Below are positions 583 through 8,240 of a stretch of DNA of 64,000 bases, in pieces. The notes beneath the pieces were generated by a model. It was not told the origin of the DNA. It ran no database searches and saw nothing but the letters and a program-made list of their open reading frames with translations. Positions within the stretch are counted from its first letter, which is position 1; each line of letters begins with the position of its first letter. The stretch is from Thermoplasmatota archaeon (GTDB taxonomy: Archaea > Thermoplasmatota > Thermoplasmata > UBA10834), in NCBI GenBank assembly GCA_040751795.1, contig JBFMHR010000004.1:64001-128000 (forward strand), given 5' to 3'. Made by a program: the position numbers and the translations under genes.

Positions 583-1515
583 ATGGGAATGTGGAAACAG
601 GCAGTCGTGTGCGCGCTCTCTCTGGTGGCAGTCATGTCCGTGTTCGCGGCCCCCGCTGCGGCCACGGACCGCTCGGAGGGCGACTACTGGGTGTACGAAG
701 GTGAGATGGAATACGAGGGGATCGCGGTCACGGGAACGTTCAGATACGAGTTCGAGGAGAAGGACTCCCTGACGGTCGGCTCGGAGACCTATGATGTCAA
801 CGTCATGAAGGTGACGGGCTCGATGACGGGCGAGACCGACGACTTCCTGGGCATCTCGGCCACGGTGGAGATGACCTTCGACGGATACTCCTACGACCTA
901 GTGGGTGGCATGGCCGTGGTCAAGGAGGACATGCACATGTGGGCGAACCTCACCATCGGGACTGGCTCGCTGGCCATCGTCACGATGGTGGAGACGCAGG
1001 ACGTCACCACGAACTCCCCGCCGTTCATGTCGGGGTTCGTCGACGGCGAGACCGGGGCCGGGGACCAGTGGAACGAGACGGTCGAGGTCTCCACGACATC
1101 CACTACATGGATCGACGGTGCGATGGAGGACACGTACAGCGGCACCTACACCGAGGACCACGCCTTCACCGTCGCCGCGGCCGAGGAGAGCGTGACTGTC
1201 GACGCCGGGACGTTCTCGTGCCTCAAGATCACCGCCACGGGGGAGTGGGACGACTACATCGTCTACTGGTACTCACCTGACGTGGCCGGCTGGGTGAAGA
1301 TGTCCTCGTACTCGATGGGCGAGACCTCGCCGTACATGACCATCGAGCTCTCCGAGTACACCCACGGCGGGCTCTCCGCGACGATGGTCCTCATGATCGT
1401 CGGGGCCGTGGCCATCATCGCGGTCGTCATCGTGGTCGCGCTCCTCATGCTCAGGAGGGGCAGGACCCCGACTCAGGTCCCGCCGCCGATGCCCCCGCCG
1501 CCTCCGACAGGGTGA
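583..1515 (+). CDS. Secreted/cell-surface protein with C-terminal TM anchor and Pro-rich tail
   Basis: True start probably ATG 583/589 within ORF 91..1515; N-terminal signal peptide (..SVFAAPAAA), acidic Thr/Gly/Tyr-rich beta-like body, C-terminal hydrophobic helix followed by RRGR and PPPMPPPPP. Confidence 0.75.
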   Translation: MGMWKQAVVCALSLVAVMSVFAAPAAATDRSEGDYWVYEGEMEYEGIAVTGTFRYEFEEKDSLTVGSETYDVNVMKVTGSMTGETDDFLGISATVEMTFDGYSYDLVGGMAVVKEDMHMWANLTIGTGSLAIVTMVETQDVTTNSPPFMSGFVDGETGAGDQWNETVEVSTTSTTWIDGAMEDTYSGTYTEDHAFTVAAAEESVTVDAGTFSCLKITATGEWDDYIVYWYSPDVAGWVKMSSYSMGETSPYMTIELSEYTHGGLSATMVLMIVGAVAIIAVVIVVALLMLRRGRTPTQVPPPMPPPPPTG

Positions 1516-1521
1516 TGGCAG

Positions 1522-2025
1522 GTGTCCCCTGACCATGCGGTAGCCAGGAGGGTCTCCGAGTCGAGGTCGGTCGTCGCCAGGGTGATGATGCCCCAGGACG
1601 CGAACATCGCCGGGAACGTCTTCGGGGGGACCATACTCAAGACCGTCGACGAGATCGCCTACGTCGCGGCCACTCAGCACGCGCGCGCGAACGTCGTCAC
1701 GGCGTCGGTCGACCGGATGGCCTTCCTGTCCCCGGTCCACGTGGGCGACCTCCTGACACTCAAGGCGAACGTGAACGCCGTGTGGAGGTCGTCGATGGAG
1801 GTCGGCGTCCGCATCGAGGCCATGGACCCCAGGACGGGAGAGGTGAGGCACACCGGGTCTTCGTACCTGACGGTCGTCGCCCTTGGGCCCGACGGCGCCC
1901 CGTGCCCCGTCCCACGCCTCGAGCTGGAGACGGACGAGGACGTGCGCCGGAACCGCGAGGCACTCGCCCGCAGGGCGAGGAGGCTCGAGGAGAAGGCCGT
2001 CGAGAGGTTCAGGTCGAAGGCGTGA
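1522..2025 (+). CDS. Acyl-CoA thioesterase (hotdog fold)
   Basis: PQDANIAGNVFGGTILKTVD..A, VVTASVDRMAFLSPVHVGD, SSMEVGV motifs. Confidence 0.92.
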   Translation: MSPDHAVARRVSESRSVVARVMMPQDANIAGNVFGGTILKTVDEIAYVAATQHARANVVTASVDRMAFLSPVHVGDLLTLKANVNAVWRSSMEVGVRIEAMDPRTGEVRHTGSSYLTVVALGPDGAPCPVPRLELETDEDVRRNREALARRARRLEEKAVERFRSKA

Positions 2026-2117
2026 CCCCGCCCCGAGGGGTATTTCAAACTTCTGCACGCGGGGACTCCGGGGTATTTATCGGAGAACCAGTTTCACCCT
2101 CATAGCAGGAGGATAGA

Positions 2118-3578
2118 TTGTCCAAAGCGGTTTTCGACCCCCTGAGCAAGGAGCAGGAGGACGCGGTGCACCTGGAGTCCATCAGGATCCTGGAGCAGGT
2201 GGGCATCAAGGTGACGAGCCACAGGGTGCTCGCCATGCTGAAGGAGAAGGGCGCGGTCGTGGACGACCGGAGCCAGGTCGCCCGGCTCTCGGAGGCGATG
2301 GTGGAGGAGGCCCTCTCGAAGGCGCCGAAGGAGTTCGTGATGGCCGCCAGGGACCCGCGCTGGGACCTGTCCCTCCCCGCGACCAGCAGGGTCTACGGGG
2401 TCAACGACGGCCAGCCCACCGACGTCTGGGACATGGACGCCCAGGTGAAGCGGAAGTCGACCGCCCGCGACCTCGTGGACCTCACCCTCGTGTGCGACGC
2501 GATGCCGGAGGTGGACCTGTACTGGCCCGAGGTGGTCGCCACCGACCTCCCCCCGGACGTCTCCAACAGCCACGAGTTCGTGGCGTCGCTCTTCAACACG
2601 GGCAAGCACATCCAGCACGGCGCGGGGTCGGTCGAGGACGCGAGGTTCCTGATCGACGCGGCCGCAGCGGTCGTCGGGTCGGAGAAGGACCTGGCCAAGA
2701 GGCCCATCATCTCGATCACGCACACGCCCATCACGCCACTGAGGTACGAGGAGGGGGACATCGAGGCCGCGGTGGAGTTCGCCCTCGCAGGACTCCCCGT
2801 CGTGCACCTCTCGATGGCCATCTCGGGCTCCGTCGCCCCGGTGACGCTGGCGGGCACGGTCGCCCTGGTGAACGCGGAGAACCTGGCGGGATTCGTGATC
2901 TCCCAGGCCGCCAAGGCCGGCGCGCCCGTCCTGTACAGCTCCGAGTCCGGCCCGATGGACATGAAGACCGGCGTGTTCCTCTCCGGCTCGACCGAGGGCG
3001 CCCTCATCAACTCGGCGGGGTGCCAGATGGCGCGCAGGTACCGGATGCCCTCGCAGGTCGGCGGCACCGCCGCATCGGGGTGCAGGCCGGGGTACGAGGT
3101 CGGCTACCAGAAGGCCATCAGCGGGCTCCTCCCGGTCATGGCGGGCGCGGACCAGGTCGTAGGCATAGGCGGCTTCGAGCGCTCGGGCTGCGAGTCCGTC
3201 GAGCAGGTCGTCATGGACTGCGAGCTCTGGAGGAACATCCTCCGCGCGTGGAGGGGCATCGACGTCGGGAGGGAGACCCTCGCCTTCGACGCCATCTCCA
3301 GGGTGGGCCCGGGCGGCTACTTCATGAAGGACGTCCACACCCTCAGGCACTTCAGGAGGGAGAACCTCCTGCCCAGGATCGCCATGCTCCCGCCGCCCCA
3401 GGACTCCGCCGAGGAGCCCATCAGGGTTGCGGCCCGCAGGGAGGCCAAGAGGATCCTCGCCGATCACAGACCGCCGCCGATCGAGAAAGGCGCCGCCGAC
3501 GAGGTCAAGGCCATTCTGAGGAGGTACGACGAGGCGACCATCAAGGCGGCCGTCCCGACGGACTACCTCAGGTACTGA
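2118..3578 (+). CDS. Trimethylamine methyltransferase (MttB) superfamily protein, non-pyrrolysine
   Basis: IH..S..ILE.VG N-terminus, TPLRY, APVTLAGTVALVNAENLAG, MDMKTG, QMARRYRMP motifs; no in-frame TAG. Confidence 0.9.
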   Translation: MSKAVFDPLSKEQEDAVHLESIRILEQVGIKVTSHRVLAMLKEKGAVVDDRSQVARLSEAMVEEALSKAPKEFVMAARDPRWDLSLPATSRVYGVNDGQPTDVWDMDAQVKRKSTARDLVDLTLVCDAMPEVDLYWPEVVATDLPPDVSNSHEFVASLFNTGKHIQHGAGSVEDARFLIDAAAAVVGSEKDLAKRPIISITHTPITPLRYEEGDIEAAVEFALAGLPVVHLSMAISGSVAPVTLAGTVALVNAENLAGFVISQAAKAGAPVLYSSESGPMDMKTGVFLSGSTEGALINSAGCQMARRYRMPSQVGGTAASGCRPGYEVGYQKAISGLLPVMAGADQVVGIGGFERSGCESVEQVVMDCELWRNILRAWRGIDVGRETLAFDAISRVGPGGYFMKDVHTLRHFRRENLLPRIAMLPPPQDSAEEPIRVAARREAKRILADHRPPPIEKGAADEVKAILRRYDEATIKAAVPTDYLRY

Positions 3579-3649
3579 ACGCCACCGCGCGAGTAGTGGC
3601 CTGTGAAGGGTTATCTTCACCGAGACCGATGACCGGCCGCTGTGATAGC

Positions 3650-4768
3650 ATGGGCTTCTCCGATGGGTCAGGGTACGACAGGTCGCTGAGGGCGGGGGCG
3701 AGGGCGTGCGTGGACGACGTCCTCGGCCTGAAGAAGGGCGAGACGCTGCTGGTCATAACCAACCCGAACCGCGAGGTCCGGGAGATCTCCATGGCCATAT
3801 TCGACGCCGCCGAGGGGGCGGGCGCGTCCCCCGTTGTGGCTTTCCAGCCGGAGAAGGGCCAGTTCGACTTCACCGAGGCGTCCATAGTCGCTGCGATGCG
3901 GGCGGAGCCGGACGCCATACTCTCCATGAGCGCGGACAGGCTGGGCAAGGACAGGGTCGGGCTCCAGAAGGGCTACAAGGGGAAGAGGAAGTACAACGAC
4001 TACTTCGAGCTCCTCTACGAGGAGAAGAAGTCGAGGGCCTTCTGGTCCCCGGGGATCACCAAGGACATGTTCAGGCGGACGGTCCCGATCGACTACACGA
4101 GGCTGAGGTCGGACTGCAGGCGGCTCGTCAAGCTGCTGGCCGCGTCCTCCGAGGCCAGGGTCACGGCGCCGGGAGGGACCGACATCCGCATCGGCGTCAA
4201 GGGCAGGAAGGCCCGGCCCGACGACGGGGACTTCAGGAGGCCCGGCGCGTCCGGGAACGTCCCGTCGGGAGAGGTGTACGTGTCGCCCGCGCTGGGCACC
4301 GCCCAGGGCGTCATCGCGTTCGACGGTTCCATGGTCCTCAACGAGGGCGAGGTCGTGATCAGGACGCCCATAGTCGCCGAGGTCGAGGGCGGGTTCATCA
4401 CCGCGATCTCCGGGAGGTCTGAGGCCGACAGGCTCAGGGCCTCTATAGCCTCCGCCCGGTCCAAGACGAGGAAGATGGTCTCCCAGGGCCTCCTCCCGAG
4501 GAAGAGCCTCGAGTCCTACTCCAGGAACGCCTCGTCGATAGGGGAGCTGGGGATAGGGCTCAACAGGCGCGCGAGGATCGTCGCGAACATGCTCGAGGAC
4601 GAGAAGGTCTACGGGACGTGCCACTTCGCCGTGGGCAGCAACTACGACGGGGACGCGGAGGCGCTGATCCACCTGGACGGGATAGTCAAGAGGCCGACCA
4701 TCACCCTGGTCTCCCACTCCGGCAAGGAGACGGTAGTGATGGAGTCCGGGAAGCTGAGCTGGGACTGA
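3650..4768 (+). CDS. Aminopeptidase, M29/thermophilic metalloprotease family
   Basis: C-terminal part of ORF 2492..4768; GNVPSGEVY, IGELGIGLN, LEDEKVYGTCHFAVGSN, IHLDG motifs. Confidence 0.88.
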   Translation: MGFSDGSGYDRSLRAGARACVDDVLGLKKGETLLVITNPNREVREISMAIFDAAEGAGASPVVAFQPEKGQFDFTEASIVAAMRAEPDAILSMSADRLGKDRVGLQKGYKGKRKYNDYFELLYEEKKSRAFWSPGITKDMFRRTVPIDYTRLRSDCRRLVKLLAASSEARVTAPGGTDIRIGVKGRKARPDDGDFRRPGASGNVPSGEVYVSPALGTAQGVIAFDGSMVLNEGEVVIRTPIVAEVEGGFITAISGRSEADRLRASIASARSKTRKMVSQGLLPRKSLESYSRNASSIGELGIGLNRRARIVANMLEDEKVYGTCHFAVGSNYDGDAEALIHLDGIVKRPTITLVSHSGKETVVMESGKLSWD

Positions 4769-4805
4769 GAGAAGGTTTAACTGCAGGCCCTCACTTCCGA
4801 GACGC

Positions 4806-5642
4806 ATGGAGGAGCGGGTCCTGCCGGGCGCGGCGGACCAGGACAGGTTCGACAGGTCCAGGAGGGTCGGATGGCTCGACCTCGAGTCGGTCTTCCGGTC
4901 CAGGGTCCTCATGCTCGGGGCGGGCGCCCTCGGCAACGAGGTCGCCAAGTGCCTCGCGCTCTCCGGCTTCAGGAGGGTCACCGTCGTGGACATGGACCAC
5001 GTCGTCGGCTCGAACCTGAACAGGTGCCTCTTCTTCACGTCGGAGGACGCGACCGCCCGCAGCAGCAAGGCGGAGGTCGTGGCCAGGGGCATCGAGCGGC
5101 TCTCCCCGGAGGCCAGGGCGAGGGCCATCGTGGGGAGGCTCGAGGACATCCCGGACGGCCTCTACCGGGAGTTCGACGTCGTCGTGGGTTGCCTCGACAA
5201 CATAGGCGCCAGGGTACACGCGAACTCCCGCGCCTACATGGCCGGGAGGCCGTACATAGACGGGGGCATGGAGGGCTTCTCCGGGAAGGTGATGGTCTGC
5301 CTCCCGCCGGACGGGCCGTGCGTCCAGTGCGGGATGAACAGGTCCCACGCGAGGGTCGCCGGGCTCAGGTTCAGCTGCACGGGCAAGGGGGTGGTGTTCC
5401 ACGAGCCGAGGCTGGCCGCGGAGATCACGACCACCAGCGTGGTGTCGGCGGTGATGGTCAGGGAGTGCCTGAAGGTGGTCTCGGGCAGGGGTGACACGGC
5501 CTTGAGGAACACGCTCTACTACGACGGGCAGAGGAACGTGGCGGAGGAGCTCGAGGTCCCCCTCGACCCGAGGTGCCCGAACCACCCGGCGAAGGTGCTA
5601 CAGGTATCCGAAAACCATATAACATCAGGCTCTGTCCAGTAG
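4806..5642 (+). CDS. E1-like ubiquitin/Ubl-activating enzyme (ThiF/MoeB/E1 family)
   Basis: GAGALG nucleotide-binding loop, DMDHV..SNLNRC, CLDN..AR, Zn site PCVQC...RCPNH, candidate catalytic Cys in RFSCTG; no rhodanese domain. Confidence 0.9.
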   Translation: MEERVLPGAADQDRFDRSRRVGWLDLESVFRSRVLMLGAGALGNEVAKCLALSGFRRVTVVDMDHVVGSNLNRCLFFTSEDATARSSKAEVVARGIERLSPEARARAIVGRLEDIPDGLYREFDVVVGCLDNIGARVHANSRAYMAGRPYIDGGMEGFSGKVMVCLPPDGPCVQCGMNRSHARVAGLRFSCTGKGVVFHEPRLAAEITTTSVVSAVMVRECLKVVSGRGDTALRNTLYYDGQRNVAEELEVPLDPRCPNHPAKVLQVSENHITSGSVQ

Positions 5643-5655
5643 GCAGGTGGTCGCC

Positions 5656-5895
5656 ATGACGTTCAGGCTCAAGGTGAAGAATGCCGAGACGGGGGCGACG
5701 GTGGAGATGGAGCTGGACGACGACAACACCGTCGACGAGATGATCGAGAGCGCTGCCACGTTCTGGAACAAGGACATGGGCGCGTACGTGCTCAGGAAGG
5801 GCAAGAAGGTCCTCCGGGGCGGGTCCACGCTCAAGGAGTCCGGCGTGATGGCCGAGGACGTGCTGGAGCTCATCCCCGACCCCGAGGGCGGATAG
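5656..5895 (+). CDS. Ubiquitin-like protein (beta-grasp) with free C-terminal Gly-Gly
   Basis: 79 aa from ATG 5656 (GTG 5647 alternative): FRLKVKN..G.TVEMEL...NTV..M...TLKESGVMAEDVLELIPDPEGG-stop, resembling ubiquitin's TL.DY.I...STLHLV..GG; lies between E1 and E2. Confidence 0.88.
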   Translation: MTFRLKVKNAETGATVEMELDDDNTVDEMIESAATFWNKDMGAYVLRKGKKVLRGGSTLKESGVMAEDVLELIPDPEGG

Positions 5896-5900
5896 TCCGG

Positions 5901-6422
5901 ATGTCCCTGCCGATAGACGTCCTGAGGCTGCGCATCAAGAACGAGATCGACGCATGCCAGCGAGAGCTGCGCCACCACATCTCCGTCTCGGACCCGACGC
6001 TCAGCCGCTTCCCCATCCAGATCAACGTTCATCTCCTCCGCGTCCCCGGCCCCGCCTGGGAGGACGGGAGGGTTGTGCACCTCTTCGTCCACAAGTTCGC
6101 GCTCATCATAGGCGAGGACTACCCGATGGAGAAGCCGATCGTCAAGTGGATGACGCCCATATTCCACCCCAACATCATGCCCCCCGAGGACGGGGGCTAC
6201 GTCTGCACCAAGCTCCTCGAGAACTGGGACCTCAGCTCGAGCCTGTCGGCCTTCATAATCGGCCTAGAGTCCCTGCTCTCCAACCCGAACCCCGGGAACC
6301 CGTTCGGCTCGGACGCGTGCACGCGTGCGGCCGCCTACTTCAACAGGAACAGGTACTCGCCCCCCTCGCAGATGGACCAGTCGGACAGGAGGGTCAGGAT
6401 CGTGGGGGCGTCCCATGGCTAG
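5901..6422 (+). CDS. E2 ubiquitin-conjugating enzyme (UBC fold)
   Basis: YPMEKPIVKWMTPIFHPNI..GYVC..L.NW...LESLLSNPNPGNPF..AA.YF matches the UBC consensus YP..PP.V.F.T.I.HPNI...G.IC..L..W...I..LL..PN...PL. Confidence 0.92.
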   Translation: MSLPIDVLRLRIKNEIDACQRELRHHISVSDPTLSRFPIQINVHLLRVPGPAWEDGRVVHLFVHKFALIIGEDYPMEKPIVKWMTPIFHPNIMPPEDGGYVCTKLLENWDLSSSLSAFIIGLESLLSNPNPGNPFGSDACTRAAAYFNRNRYSPPSQMDQSDRRVRIVGASHG

Positions 6423-7059
6423 GCCGAAGGTGGTGAGGGAGACCAGGCGGAGCCCGGAGGAGAGGCGCCCGCCGGCCGCGGGCTCGCTGCGCCCTCACGG
6501 GTGGCTGTCCCCGGACTCCTTGGCCGCGTACGAGGAGGCTCTGTCCTCCGGGGCACCATTCCCCCTGTACATCTCCTCGCACGCCGAGGCGCTGATGCGC
6601 TCCCACGCCGAGAGGGAGGCGCCGCGGAGGCTCGAGGTGATGGGATTCATGCTCGGGGAGGTCGCCTCCTGGGAGGGCTCGGTGTACGCGACAGTGAGGG
6701 ACGCCGCCTCGACGGACCTGAAGAGCAGCCCCTCGAAGGTCAGGTTCGACCGCGACGCCTTCCCGAAGCTCTTCGGGGACATGGACGGCTCGGGCTTCGA
6801 CTACATCATCGTCGGGTGGTACCACTCCCACCCCGGCCACACATGCTTCCTCTCGAGGACGGACCTGGAGACCCAGAGGACCATGTTCGACCAGCCCTAC
6901 CACTCCGCCCTCGTGATAGACCCCCTGAGCGAGGACGTCAAGGCGTTCAGGCTCGCCGGCCGGGGGTACGAGGAGGTCCCCTTCGCCGTCACCGACGCGA
7001 TCTCCCCCGCCAGGCGGGTGGGGGGAAGGACCCGGAGGCTCAGGGCGGGCCAATCCTGA
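6415..7059 (+). CDS. JAB/MPN+ (JAMM) metalloisopeptidase, Rpn11/CSN5-like
   Basis: ATG 6415 overlaps the E2 stop; EVMGFMLG...GWYHSHPGHTCFLSRTD..TQ...ALVIDP, a full E-x(n)-HxH-x7-S-x2-D motif. Confidence 0.92.
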   Translation: MARPKVVRETRRSPEERRPPAAGSLRPHGWLSPDSLAAYEEALSSGAPFPLYISSHAEALMRSHAEREAPRRLEVMGFMLGEVASWEGSVYATVRDAASTDLKSSPSKVRFDRDAFPKLFGDMDGSGFDYIIVGWYHSHPGHTCFLSRTDLETQRTMFDQPYHSALVIDPLSEDVKAFRLAGRGYEEVPFAVTDAISPARRVGGRTRRLRAGQS

Positions 7060-7106
7060 GGGAAAAGCTATTCGTGCCGCCCGTCTTAGGGTCCTATCGG
7101 TGTGAG

Positions 7107-8240
7107 ATGGCCCCTGGATGTACGCCCGCCCTCCTCATCGCGCTCGCGTTCCTGTCCATGTGTGCCTCGGGGCTCGCCGCAGGCGAGGACGGGGACGACT
7201 ATGCGATCTTCTACAGCGTCGACGACACGAAGGTCAGCATAGTCTCGGGCAACCTCACCGTGGCCGTCACCAGGGACTGGCCGAGGGTGCTCTTCTGGCA
7301 CTCGGATGACCCGTTCTCCCCCACCTTCGAGGTCGGTTTCCCGAAGCTCTACCTGTTCAACGACACCGACAGGGACGGCAGGTTCTGCAGGTCGGAGGCC
7401 GTCTACACCGTCTACCTCGACTCGAACCGGGTGGAGTGGAACCTCTCCTCGGTCTCGTTCGGCTACGAGGGCGAGCTTGGGGAGTCCATATCCTTCTCGA
7501 TGACCGCAAGGGCGAACGCCTTCAACGACACGCTCGACGCGCCCCCGGCCGTCGAGTCGTGGGCCAACGTGACGTTCTGGTTCAGGGTCGCCGAGAACAC
7601 GACCACCGTCGCCAACCCCGCCGGCTCGTACGGCCTGTCGGGGAAGACGGAGATGCTCGTCGACATGAGCATCGAGGTCACCAACAGGACTGAGTTCGAC
7701 GCGGTCGCCCTGGAGCGCTTCCTGCAGGGCGGGGGCACGACCGACATGTTCGAGATACTCGAGGACGGCCGGGACGGGGCCGTGAGCGCGGTGCTCTCTG
7801 GCAGGGTCGACGAGAGCGCCGGTGACGGGGACTTCACGAGGCCCCTGAACATGACGGACTCCGCAGTCCAGAGCATCGAGTTCGCGAAGGACGACGGCAC
7901 GGTCCAGGCGTTCTACAGCTGGGGCTCGGAGGCCGTGGACGCGAGCGGGTCCACGCCAGGGGTCCACCTCAACTCGTCGTGCTTCACGACCGGGGCCGGG
8001 CTCATCCTTCACTCCGTCGTGCCGCTGTCCAACGGGACCGCATCCATCTCGCACGACTCGAGCGTCGGCCTGGTCGAGGAGGGCTTCGTCGGGGCCATGA
8101 CGGACTGGATAAGGGAGCACGGCCTCGTGCTGGGGTCGGCAGCGGCCGTCGCCGCCGTGGCGGGCGTCGTCGCGCTGCACCTGGTCCTGAGGCGGAGGCG
8201 CTTCGGAGGGGAAGGCCCCGAGGAGAGAGGCGCCAAGTGA
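7107..8240 (+). CDS. Secreted/surface glycoprotein with C-terminal TM anchor
   Basis: Signal peptide after ATG 7107, many N-x-S/T sequons, acidic composition, C-terminal hydrophobic helix followed by RRRR. Confidence 0.72.
   Translation: MAPGCTPALLIALAFLSMCASGLAAGEDGDDYAIFYSVDDTKVSIVSGNLTVAVTRDWPRVLFWHSDDPFSPTFEVGFPKLYLFNDTDRDGRFCRSEAVYTVYLDSNRVEWNLSSVSFGYEGELGESISFSMTARANAFNDTLDAPPAVESWANVTFWFRVAENTTTVANPAGSYGLSGKTEMLVDMSIEVTNRTEFDAVALERFLQGGGTTDMFEILEDGRDGAVSAVLSGRVDESAGDGDFTRPLNMTDSAVQSIEFAKDDGTVQAFYSWGSEAVDASGSTPGVHLNSSCFTTGAGLILHSVVPLSNGTASISHDSSVGLVEEGFVGAMTDWIREHGLVLGSAAAVAAVAGVVALHLVLRRRRFGGEGPEERGAK

Follow-up and report, generated by a model that had tools for sequence, protein, structure and literature searches.

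A 64,000-nucleotide stretch of contig JBFMHR010000004.1 from a Thermoplasmatota archaeon (GenBank assembly GCA_040751795.1; 2.05 Mb, 53 contigs, 92.8% complete) was analysed. This whole stretch is called the window, and all coordinates are positions in it. Between positions 4806 and 7059 the forward strand carries a four-gene operon encoding the components of a putative ubiquitin-like conjugation system: an activating enzyme (E1), a ubiquitin-like protein (Ubl), a conjugating enzyme (E2) and a protease of the JAB family (JAB).

4806..5642, + strand: E1, ThiF-type, 278 aa; Pfam ThiF PF00899
5656..5895, + strand: Ubl, 79 aa; ubiquitin fold, ends PDPEGG directly before the stop
5901..6422, + strand: E2, UBC fold, 173 aa; Pfam UQ_con PF00179
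6415..7059, + strand: JAB, Rpn11-like JAMM/MPN+ metalloprotease, 214 aa; Pfam JAB PF01398

An earlier note, made from the sequence alone, had described four packed open reading frames on one strand. Their coordinates and spacings (13 nt, 5 nt, then an 8-nt overlap of E2 and JAB) were confirmed. The domain assignments made in that note also held: the ThiF/E1 with a candidate catalytic cysteine in RFSCTG through its Pfam match and invariant loop cysteine, the 79-aa beta-grasp protein ending in GG through a ubiquitin/SUMO fold by model (its PF00240 match stays under the cut-off), the UBC-fold E2 with intact HPN...C through its UQ_con match and motif, and the JAMM protease through Pfam JAB, its motif and a match to Rpn11.

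The E1 matches Pfam ThiF (PF00899) with an E-value of 5.6e-47 (160 bits, cut-off 28.1) and contains the motifs GAGALG, C172-x2-C175, the RFSC191TG loop and C257-x2-H260. Two pairs of zinc ligands, C172xxC175 and C257xxH260, flank Cys191 (codon 5376-5378), the candidate catalytic residue, whose crossover-loop location matches that of the cysteines in ThiF, MoeB and UBA5. The best sequence matches in the PDB are UBA3, Uba1 and SAE2 (E about 1e-21 to 1e-22), and weaker ones are MoeB and ThiF (1e-16 to 1e-17), UBA5 (2e-10) and 'Citrobacter BubCD' (1.8e-06). The protein has the minimal size and predicted fold of ThiF, MoeB and UBA5; its model, with a predicted local distance difference test score (pLDDT) of 83.9, covers the ThiF/MoeB core only, and residues 182-200, which hold Cys191, and 263-278 are predicted to be disordered. 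The top Foldseek matches of the model are ThiF (template modelling score, TM, 0.86 on the target), UBA5 (6h78, rank two) and MoeB. Residues C74, C129, C172, C175, C191 and C257 are invariant among 18 sequences, and GxGxxG, CxxC and the loop cysteine are present in all 64 complete E1s of the census of related loci described below.

The Ubl ends in ...LK-ESGVMAEDVLELIPDPEGG, in which Glu77 is near-invariant. Its match to Pfam ubiquitin (PF00240) reaches 17.4 bits (E 0.0039), below the cut-off of 25.4. The AlphaFold model (pLDDT 88.3) retrieves SUMO1 and ubiquitin chains, and not ThiS or MoaD, as its best Foldseek matches, at TM 0.80-0.88 and about 20-24% identity. Residues W37, G49, P74, D75, P76, G78 and G79 are invariant in 23 sequences, and P-x-GG is kept in the Ubls of all 92 relatives; GG is terminal in 67 of these, and in 25 a tail of 1-10 residues follows it (seen, for example, at L042 and L048). 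The Ubl in the window stops at GG and requires no maturation; the tails of the 25 relatives imply trimming by the protease of the operon. Language-model look-alikes of the Ubl are archaeal clusters without names, mostly from Thermoplasmatota (20 of 30 matches). An alternative GTG start at 5647 would give a product of 82 aa, and a GGTG patch resembling a Shine-Dalgarno sequence lies 5-10 nt 5' of the gene.

The E2 matches UQ_con (PF00179) with an E-value of 1.1e-14 (54.7 bits, cut-off 27) and has H89-P-N at 6165-6173, the catalytic Cys102 at 6204-6206 and, at its C-terminus, a basic tail carrying R-[IV]-V. Among the best 60 of 250 PDB matches, nearly all are named ubiquitin-family E2s (E down to 2.1e-14), and a profile of 23 family members gave the same picture. 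In these 23 sequences H89, P90, N91, C102, W109, P129 and N130 are invariant. HPN is present in the E2s of 92 of 92 relatives and the complete HPN...C in 91.

The JAB protein matches PF01398 (E 3.1e-11, 43.6 bits, cut-off 22.5) and Prok-JAB (3.1e-07, 30.7 bits). Its JAMM motif, H137-S-H139-x7-S147-x2-D150 at 6823-6864, is a perfect match and recurs in all 88 complete relatives. The best PDB match is yeast Rpn11 (8.5e-14); a further match, at 2.6e-12, is 6fjv, a '26S proteasome regulatory subunit N11-like protein' that is presumably the Caldiarchaeum Rpn11. The protein begins with an extension of ~50 aa with a conserved P-[KR]-[IV]-[IV] ... PP ... H-x-W pattern. Both the E2 tail (...RRVRIVG..., 6385-6422) and the JAB N-terminus (MARPKVVRE..., 6415-6440) carry a basic [PR]-[KR]-[IV]-[IV] motif, which is kept in most aligned families, the most distant ones excepted; it may be a shared docking motif.

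The operon is widespread among relatives of the source organism. Of 41 close relatives, 32 yielded the E2, including 22 of 24 in the same family and 3 of 3 in the sister family of the order. Sampling of the class gave 140 of 401 genomes and 50 of 104 genera, with 31 of 32 genomes in the window's family, and a profile search of genomes sampled from the phylum gave 93 of 401 genomes and 51 of 164 genera. In several large families no E2 turned up in the genomes searched (for example f11, 0/75, and f19, 0/50). Scanning named genome records gave 257 relatives that were confirmed; the best 80 of these are all archaeal metagenome-assembled genomes, mostly labelled Thermoplasmata, Thermoplasmatota or Methanomassiliicoccales (e.g. 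RBG_13_57_23, UBA10834), which agrees with the Thermoplasmata origin proposed from the sequence in the earlier note. In a representative library the E2 had 7394 matches at E<=0.001, 369 at <=1e-10 and 34 at <=1e-30; organism names were available for only 2 of 20 weaker matches ('Theionarchaea archaeon DG-70' and 'uncultured archaeon'). Some larger genomes of the phylum (G516 and G504) have 5-7 E2 matches, some in open frames of 552-1057 aa, which suggests expansion of E2 paralogues and fusions in these lineages.

Gene order was surveyed in a census of 133 fetched loci, which reduced to 95 non-identical E2 sequences. The order E1-Ubl-E2-JAB is kept in 67 of 95, Ubl-E2-JAB in 22, Ubl-E2-JAB-E1 in two and E1-Ubl-E2 in one; E2 stands alone in three. 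The same four genes in the same order in 67 non-identical loci place the operon far beyond chance. Apart from lineage synteny, 100 neighbourhoods showed no additional conserved gene. Two families have a JAB whose C-terminus is extended by a long coiled-coil region (L041:6520-9144, +, 874 aa; L047:6595-8484, +, 629 aa), and at both of these loci the E1 follows the JAB and is not ahead of the Ubl.

The more distant the taxon, the less its E2 resembles that of the window: identity is 75-88% within the genus, 63-78% within the family, about 63-65% within the order (full-length matches) and 30-61% elsewhere. Loci under 60% identity share a chromosomal slot with tryptophanyl-tRNA synthetase on one side and SIS, TIM barrel and L18e-L13-S9-RpoN genes on the other (e.g. 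L043, L044, L050-L054, L097, L098, L135). The bin of 50-60% E2 identity (41 loci, not deduplicated) has SIS in 14, the TIM barrel in 14 and L18e in 11, and the bin under 50% (7 loci) has the TIM barrel in 5. A slot shared by distant families and identity that tracks taxonomy argue for vertical descent and against a recent, ameliorated transfer, so the acquired cassette implied by the word 'ameliorated' in the earlier note was not borne out. The evidence, drawn from sequence comparison, points to old vertical inheritance within the phylum.

Taken together, the four genes probably form a self-contained, eukaryote-type Ubl conjugation cassette that is inherited vertically within the Thermoplasmatota, a reading in which we place good confidence. 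From the components we infer the following chemistry, in which the targets, and any link to the proteasome or to Cdc48-dependent turnover, have the same conditional standing. The E1, probably a homodimer like ThiF, MoeB and UBA5, would adenylate the C-terminal Gly79 of the Ubl and take it up as a thioester on Cys191 of the mobile crossover loop. The Ubl would then be trans-thioesterified to Cys102 of the UBC-fold E2 and passed to target lysines, either directly without a ligase (E3), as Ubc9 can do, or via a RING-like protein encoded elsewhere. The Rpn11-like JAMM protease would strip the Ubl from its conjugates; in relatives with a tailed Ubl it may also expose the GG, as CsRpn11 does for Caldiarchaeum pro-ubiquitin. 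Our reading of the system is thus one of Ubl conjugation that would be either E3-independent or served by an E3 in trans.

Candidates for such a RING-like protein are present in the source genome. The zf-RING_2 profile gave two sub-threshold matches (18 bits), both on other contigs. The first is a helical protein of ~1510 aa on contig C1, ending at ~149547 (L136:160-1635, +) with CARDB upstream, whose C-terminus passes Pfam Prok-RING_1 at 30.7 bits (cut-off 29.1); the second, on contig C51 (L137:766-1827, -), has 353 aa and several zinc ribbons. Both show the C4HC3 binuclear zinc-finger pattern C-x2-C-x12-C-x-C-x4-H-x2-C-x6-C-x2-C. The window's family retains the giant Prok-RING_1 form in every genome sampled (32 of 32). 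In the class, Prok-RING_1 was found in 177 of 401 genomes, over the cut-off in 88, a tally that counts one weak match in G204. It is present in families without a detected E2 (f14 11/11, f20 8/8, f10 4/4) and scarce in families with E2 (f26 2/14, where E2 is universal, and f6 10/56). Since Prok-RING_1 does not track E2, the giant RING protein is only a candidate E3.

A different arrangement is seen in family f16, where 10 of 15 genomes with an E2-like match (G041, G051, G069, G077, G092, G106, G142, G147, G224, G230) have, on the same contig, a RING C-terminus that is divergently oriented at a distance of 4.6-4.8 kb. The E2-like match lies in a fusion protein of ~225 aa, composed of a Ubl-like N-terminal domain and an E2 domain that keeps HPN and lacks the canonical cysteine. 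The N-terminal domain aligns with the Ubl profile over 71 columns (hhalign probability 87.7%, E 3.4e-06). Inspection of the E2 domain by eye in 14 representatives found no cysteine in the stretch in 10 and a shifted one in 4. The fusion stands head-to-head with a protein of ~1460 aa that ends in a Prok-RING_1 finger: at locus L055, a 1454-aa open reading frame (1238-5602, -) faces one of 221 aa (5801-6466, +) across 198 nt. The four-gene operon is not present at L055, the one E2-like locus of this family that was examined. The pairing is suggestive of a link between the RING protein and the Ubl system.

Several observations weigh against the cassette as read here. The E1 has no C-terminal ubiquitin-fold domain, the part by which canonical E1s recruit the E2, as both sequence and model end at residue 278 in a disordered tail. 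No RING, U-box or HECT gene was found in or beside the operon, and a rule of strict co-occurrence for a trans-acting RING E3 was rejected, because the distribution of Prok-RING_1 departs from that of the E2. In the 22 of 95 loci ordered Ubl-E2-JAB an adjacent E1 was not found (some loci stop at contig ends), and in L039, L040, L042 and L049 none lies within ~6 kb. The census counts are not independent, because the loci were gathered by E2 similarity from related organisms. Finally, a search for sequencing runs holding the stretch listed no RNA run, and its 20 DNA rows reached at most 0.39 of the sampled words.

Among other explanations, the least unlikely is that the operon is a Bil-like anti-virus defence system. 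Bacterial BilABCD reportedly consists of the same four parts (Ubl, E2, JAB and E1) and conjugates its Ubl to phage structural proteins. The present E1 also weakly matches PADLOC 'E1-E2' models (best 1.9e-13) and the JAB PADLOC 'JAB' models (best 2.4e-4). These matches, however, are only to generic CBASS-type ThiF and JAB cores, and E2 and Ubl have no match in PADLOC-DB 2.0.0, which may or may not hold Bil models. Unlike in Bil and Bub systems, the E2 is of the eukaryote-type UQ_con family, and no Prok-E2 family was listed. A patchy distribution and a place in variable islands are typical of defence systems, whereas this operon is single copy, occupies a fixed housekeeping slot by ribosomal protein genes in distant families, and occurs in 31 of the 32 genomes sampled from the window's family, with identity tracking taxonomy. 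A defence function of this kind is therefore regarded as improbable.

A second alternative is that E1 and E2 join the Ubl to something other than a protein, for instance a glycan or the head group of a lipid, in the manner of Atg8-phosphatidylethanolamine, or that the Ubl acts mainly as a non-covalent adaptor. The operon contains neither an E3 nor a substrate-recognition module, and in the window's own family it is followed by a membrane protein of no known family, as this idea would have it. That neighbour is, however, confined to the window's lineage: it was matched at 59 of 65 loci at >=70% E2 identity, 8 of 20 at 60-70% and 0 of 48 under 60%. An Rpn11-like isopeptidase better suits protein conjugates, and homology to Atg3, Atg7 and Atg10 does not go beyond the shared folds. 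We give this alternative very little credence.

The genome contains one match each to UQ_con and to PF01398 JAB. It has two ThiF genes, the second being a canonical one on contig C1 (258 bits), and three genes elsewhere that match the ThiS profile PF02597, which does not match the ubiquitin/SUMO-like Ubl of the operon; a sulfur-carrier set, or one of small archaeal modifier protein (SAMP) type, thus exists apart from it. The remaining alternative, in which the E1 thiocarboxylates the beta-grasp protein for cofactor synthesis or tRNA thiolation, or at most performs E1-only sampylation beside a non-catalytic E2, is in keeping with the ThiF/MoeB size and fold of the E1 and with the E1-only conjugation established for archaea in Haloferax (Koonin 2015, PMC4571572), but is most unlikely given that separate set, the absence of any rhodanese, molybdenum cofactor, thiamine or tRNA-thiolation gene found beside the operon, and an HPN and catalytic cysteine kept in 91 of 92 relatives, which are hard to square with an inert protein.

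Judged by sequence and predicted fold, the parts of the proposed conjugation cassette resemble the eukaryotic and Caldiarchaeum kind and not the SAMP/MoaD sulfur carriers. The Caldiarchaeum subterraneum operon encodes Ub, an E1-like, an E2-like and a small RING finger protein and Rpn11 (Nunoura 2011, PMC3082918), and CsRpn11 removes a nine-residue pro-peptide (Fuchs 2018, PMC6043591; Hennell James 2017, PMC5654768). Both systems combine a GG-ending ubiquitin-fold modifier, an HPN/Cys UBC-fold E2 and an Rpn11-like JAMM protease in one archaeal operon, and the Ubl tails of 25 of 92 relatives parallel the pro-peptide. Unlike Caldiarchaeum, the window's operon has no RING E3 gene, its Ubl ends at GG and its lineage is Thermoplasmatota, not TACK. 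The E1 differs as well: a figure legend on the Caldiarchaeum E1 model mentions UBL domains (Hennell James 2017, PMC5654768), whereas the window's E1, with 278 aa, is of ThiF/UBA5 size and lacks a ubiquitin-fold domain. With neither an operon RING E3 nor an E1 with a ubiquitin-fold domain, the system is a variant of the Caldiarchaeum/Asgard kind and not a member of it.

Asgard systems have several E2/UEV paralogues, RING E3s and a link to the ESCRT (endosomal sorting) machinery, according to the available portions of PMC11188069 and bioRxiv 10.1101/2023.07.25.550441. The present system shares with them eukaryote-type E1, E2, Ub and MPN components in archaea; it differs in having one E2 in the window's genome, no E3 in the operon and no ESCRT neighbour. 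It resembles the SAMP/UbaA/HvJAMM1 system of Haloferax in its GG-ending beta-grasp modifier, ThiF-type E1 and JAMM protease, whereas Haloferax has no E2 and its modifiers are of ThiS/MoaD type (Koonin 2015, PMC4571572).

For the E1, a possible analogue is the UBA5-UFC1 pair of the UFM1 pathway, in which a single-domain enzyme with a crossover-loop cysteine and no ubiquitin-fold domain still charges an E2. The second rank of UBA5 (6h78) in the fold search of the E1 agrees with this. In sequence, however, the window's E1 is nearer UBA3, Uba1 and SAE2 than UBA5, and its E2 is a canonical HPN-type UBC, which UFC1 presumably is not.

The upstream sequence and the surroundings of the operon in the window were also inspected. 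The gap from the upstream stop at 4768 to the E1 ATG at 4806 is 37 nt and includes the following feature.

4776..4780, + strand: possible TATA-like A/T patch TTTAA, 26-30 nt 5' of the E1 ATG, read from the sequence only

This patch would weakly suggest a leaderless or near-leaderless operon transcript. A scan of 4500-7400 for bacterial-type promoters and terminators, which does not cover archaeal promoters, found nothing. The G+C content is 0.663-0.665 over the operon and 0.607-0.691 across the window. Neighbouring genes encode a class I W/Y tRNA synthetase fragment, a thioesterase, an MttB-like methyltransferase, an M29 peptidase, the membrane protein of no known family (377 aa), SIS, a xylose-isomerase-like TIM barrel, L18e/L13/S9/RpoN and a cation-efflux transporter. 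These housekeeping neighbours support the placement of the operon outside sulfur-carrier operons and defence islands that had been proposed in the earlier note. The MttB, M29 and membrane-protein genes also adjoin the operon in the window's own lineage, the first two in that lineage only. The MttB-family (trimethylamine methyltransferase-like) gene lies just upstream at 2118-3578 (+) and encodes 486 aa (3.7e-77) with no in-frame stop. At six loci a conserved neighbour codes for a protein of 234 aa that has a zinc ribbon at its N-terminus and weakly matches a LURP-one-related (tubby-like) model (17.6 bits, under the cut-off); one such LURP-one-related-like gene, L038:3365-4069 (+), lies just upstream of the E1.

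The earlier note had assigned the system to a lineage not usually credited with one. This stands in so far as full-text literature searches found no published description or experimental test of the operon; it does not stand for the E2 itself, which NCBI and JGI records already name. Member proteins are recorded as 'ubiquitin-conjugating enzyme E2 [Thermoplasmata archaeon]', 'ubiquitin-conjugating enzyme [Candidatus Methanoplasma termitum]' and 'hypothetical protein AR505_0175 [methanogenic archaeon ISO4-H5]', and others come from Methanomethylophilus sp., Methanomassiliicoccus sp. and Candidatus Sysuiplasma acidicola. In addition, a 2023 preprint (bioRxiv 10.1101/2023.07.25.550441) retrieved 240 non-Asgard archaeal UBC proteins and, in the portion available, places a 'Ca. 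Thermoplasmatota E2' as a deep branch at the base of the archaeal E2/UEV clade. Fuchs 2018 (PMC6043591) described a JAMM-3 group that shares operons with homologues of Ub, E1 and E2, its taxa not named in the accessible text; it may be the same as the present JAB group, which would bear on priority. The only euryarchaeal case in the consulted part of Grau-Bove 2015 is a single genome of marine group II that carries RINGs and a UCH deubiquitinase, which, as described there, differs from the present operon. The cassette is real, complete and conserved; its distribution is more ordinary, and its novelty smaller, than the earlier note supposed.

A further, tentative reading, which we hold as possible and somewhat doubtful, is that the operon represents an ancestral, E3-less minimal ubiquitin system of the Thermoplasmatota, in which a ThiF-sized E1 lacking the ubiquitin-fold domain would charge a canonical UBC E2. 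Such a system would have branched off early, as the sister of those in Asgard and TACK archaea and in eukaryotes, and one family would have remodelled it into the Ubl-E2 fusion without the cysteine. The deep-branching placement is taken solely from the available part of the 2023 preprint (bioRxiv 10.1101/2023.07.25.550441). If this reading is true, E2-dependent ubiquitylation would predate the split of these archaeal lineages, and the RING neighbour in family f16 would hint at an E3-like partner that evolved or was retained separately.

E2-dependent ubiquitylation is usually discussed for eukaryotes, Asgard archaea and Aigarchaeota, with the Bil, Bub and CBASS systems of bacteria regarded as offshoots that serve defence. 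In the present case this chemistry, reduced to four genes, appears to be a conserved housekeeping trait of a large euryarchaeal phylum. The carriers include enrichment-cultured methanogens (Methanoplasma termitum, ISO4-H5, Methanomethylophilus, Methanomassiliicoccus), so that the system could be tested in living archaea, which has so far not been feasible for Caldiarchaeum. It would offer a natural experiment in the charging of a UBC E2 by an E1 without a ubiquitin-fold domain, would test the need for any E3, and could show what role Ubl tagging has in a cell with a 20S proteasome and without the 19S lid.

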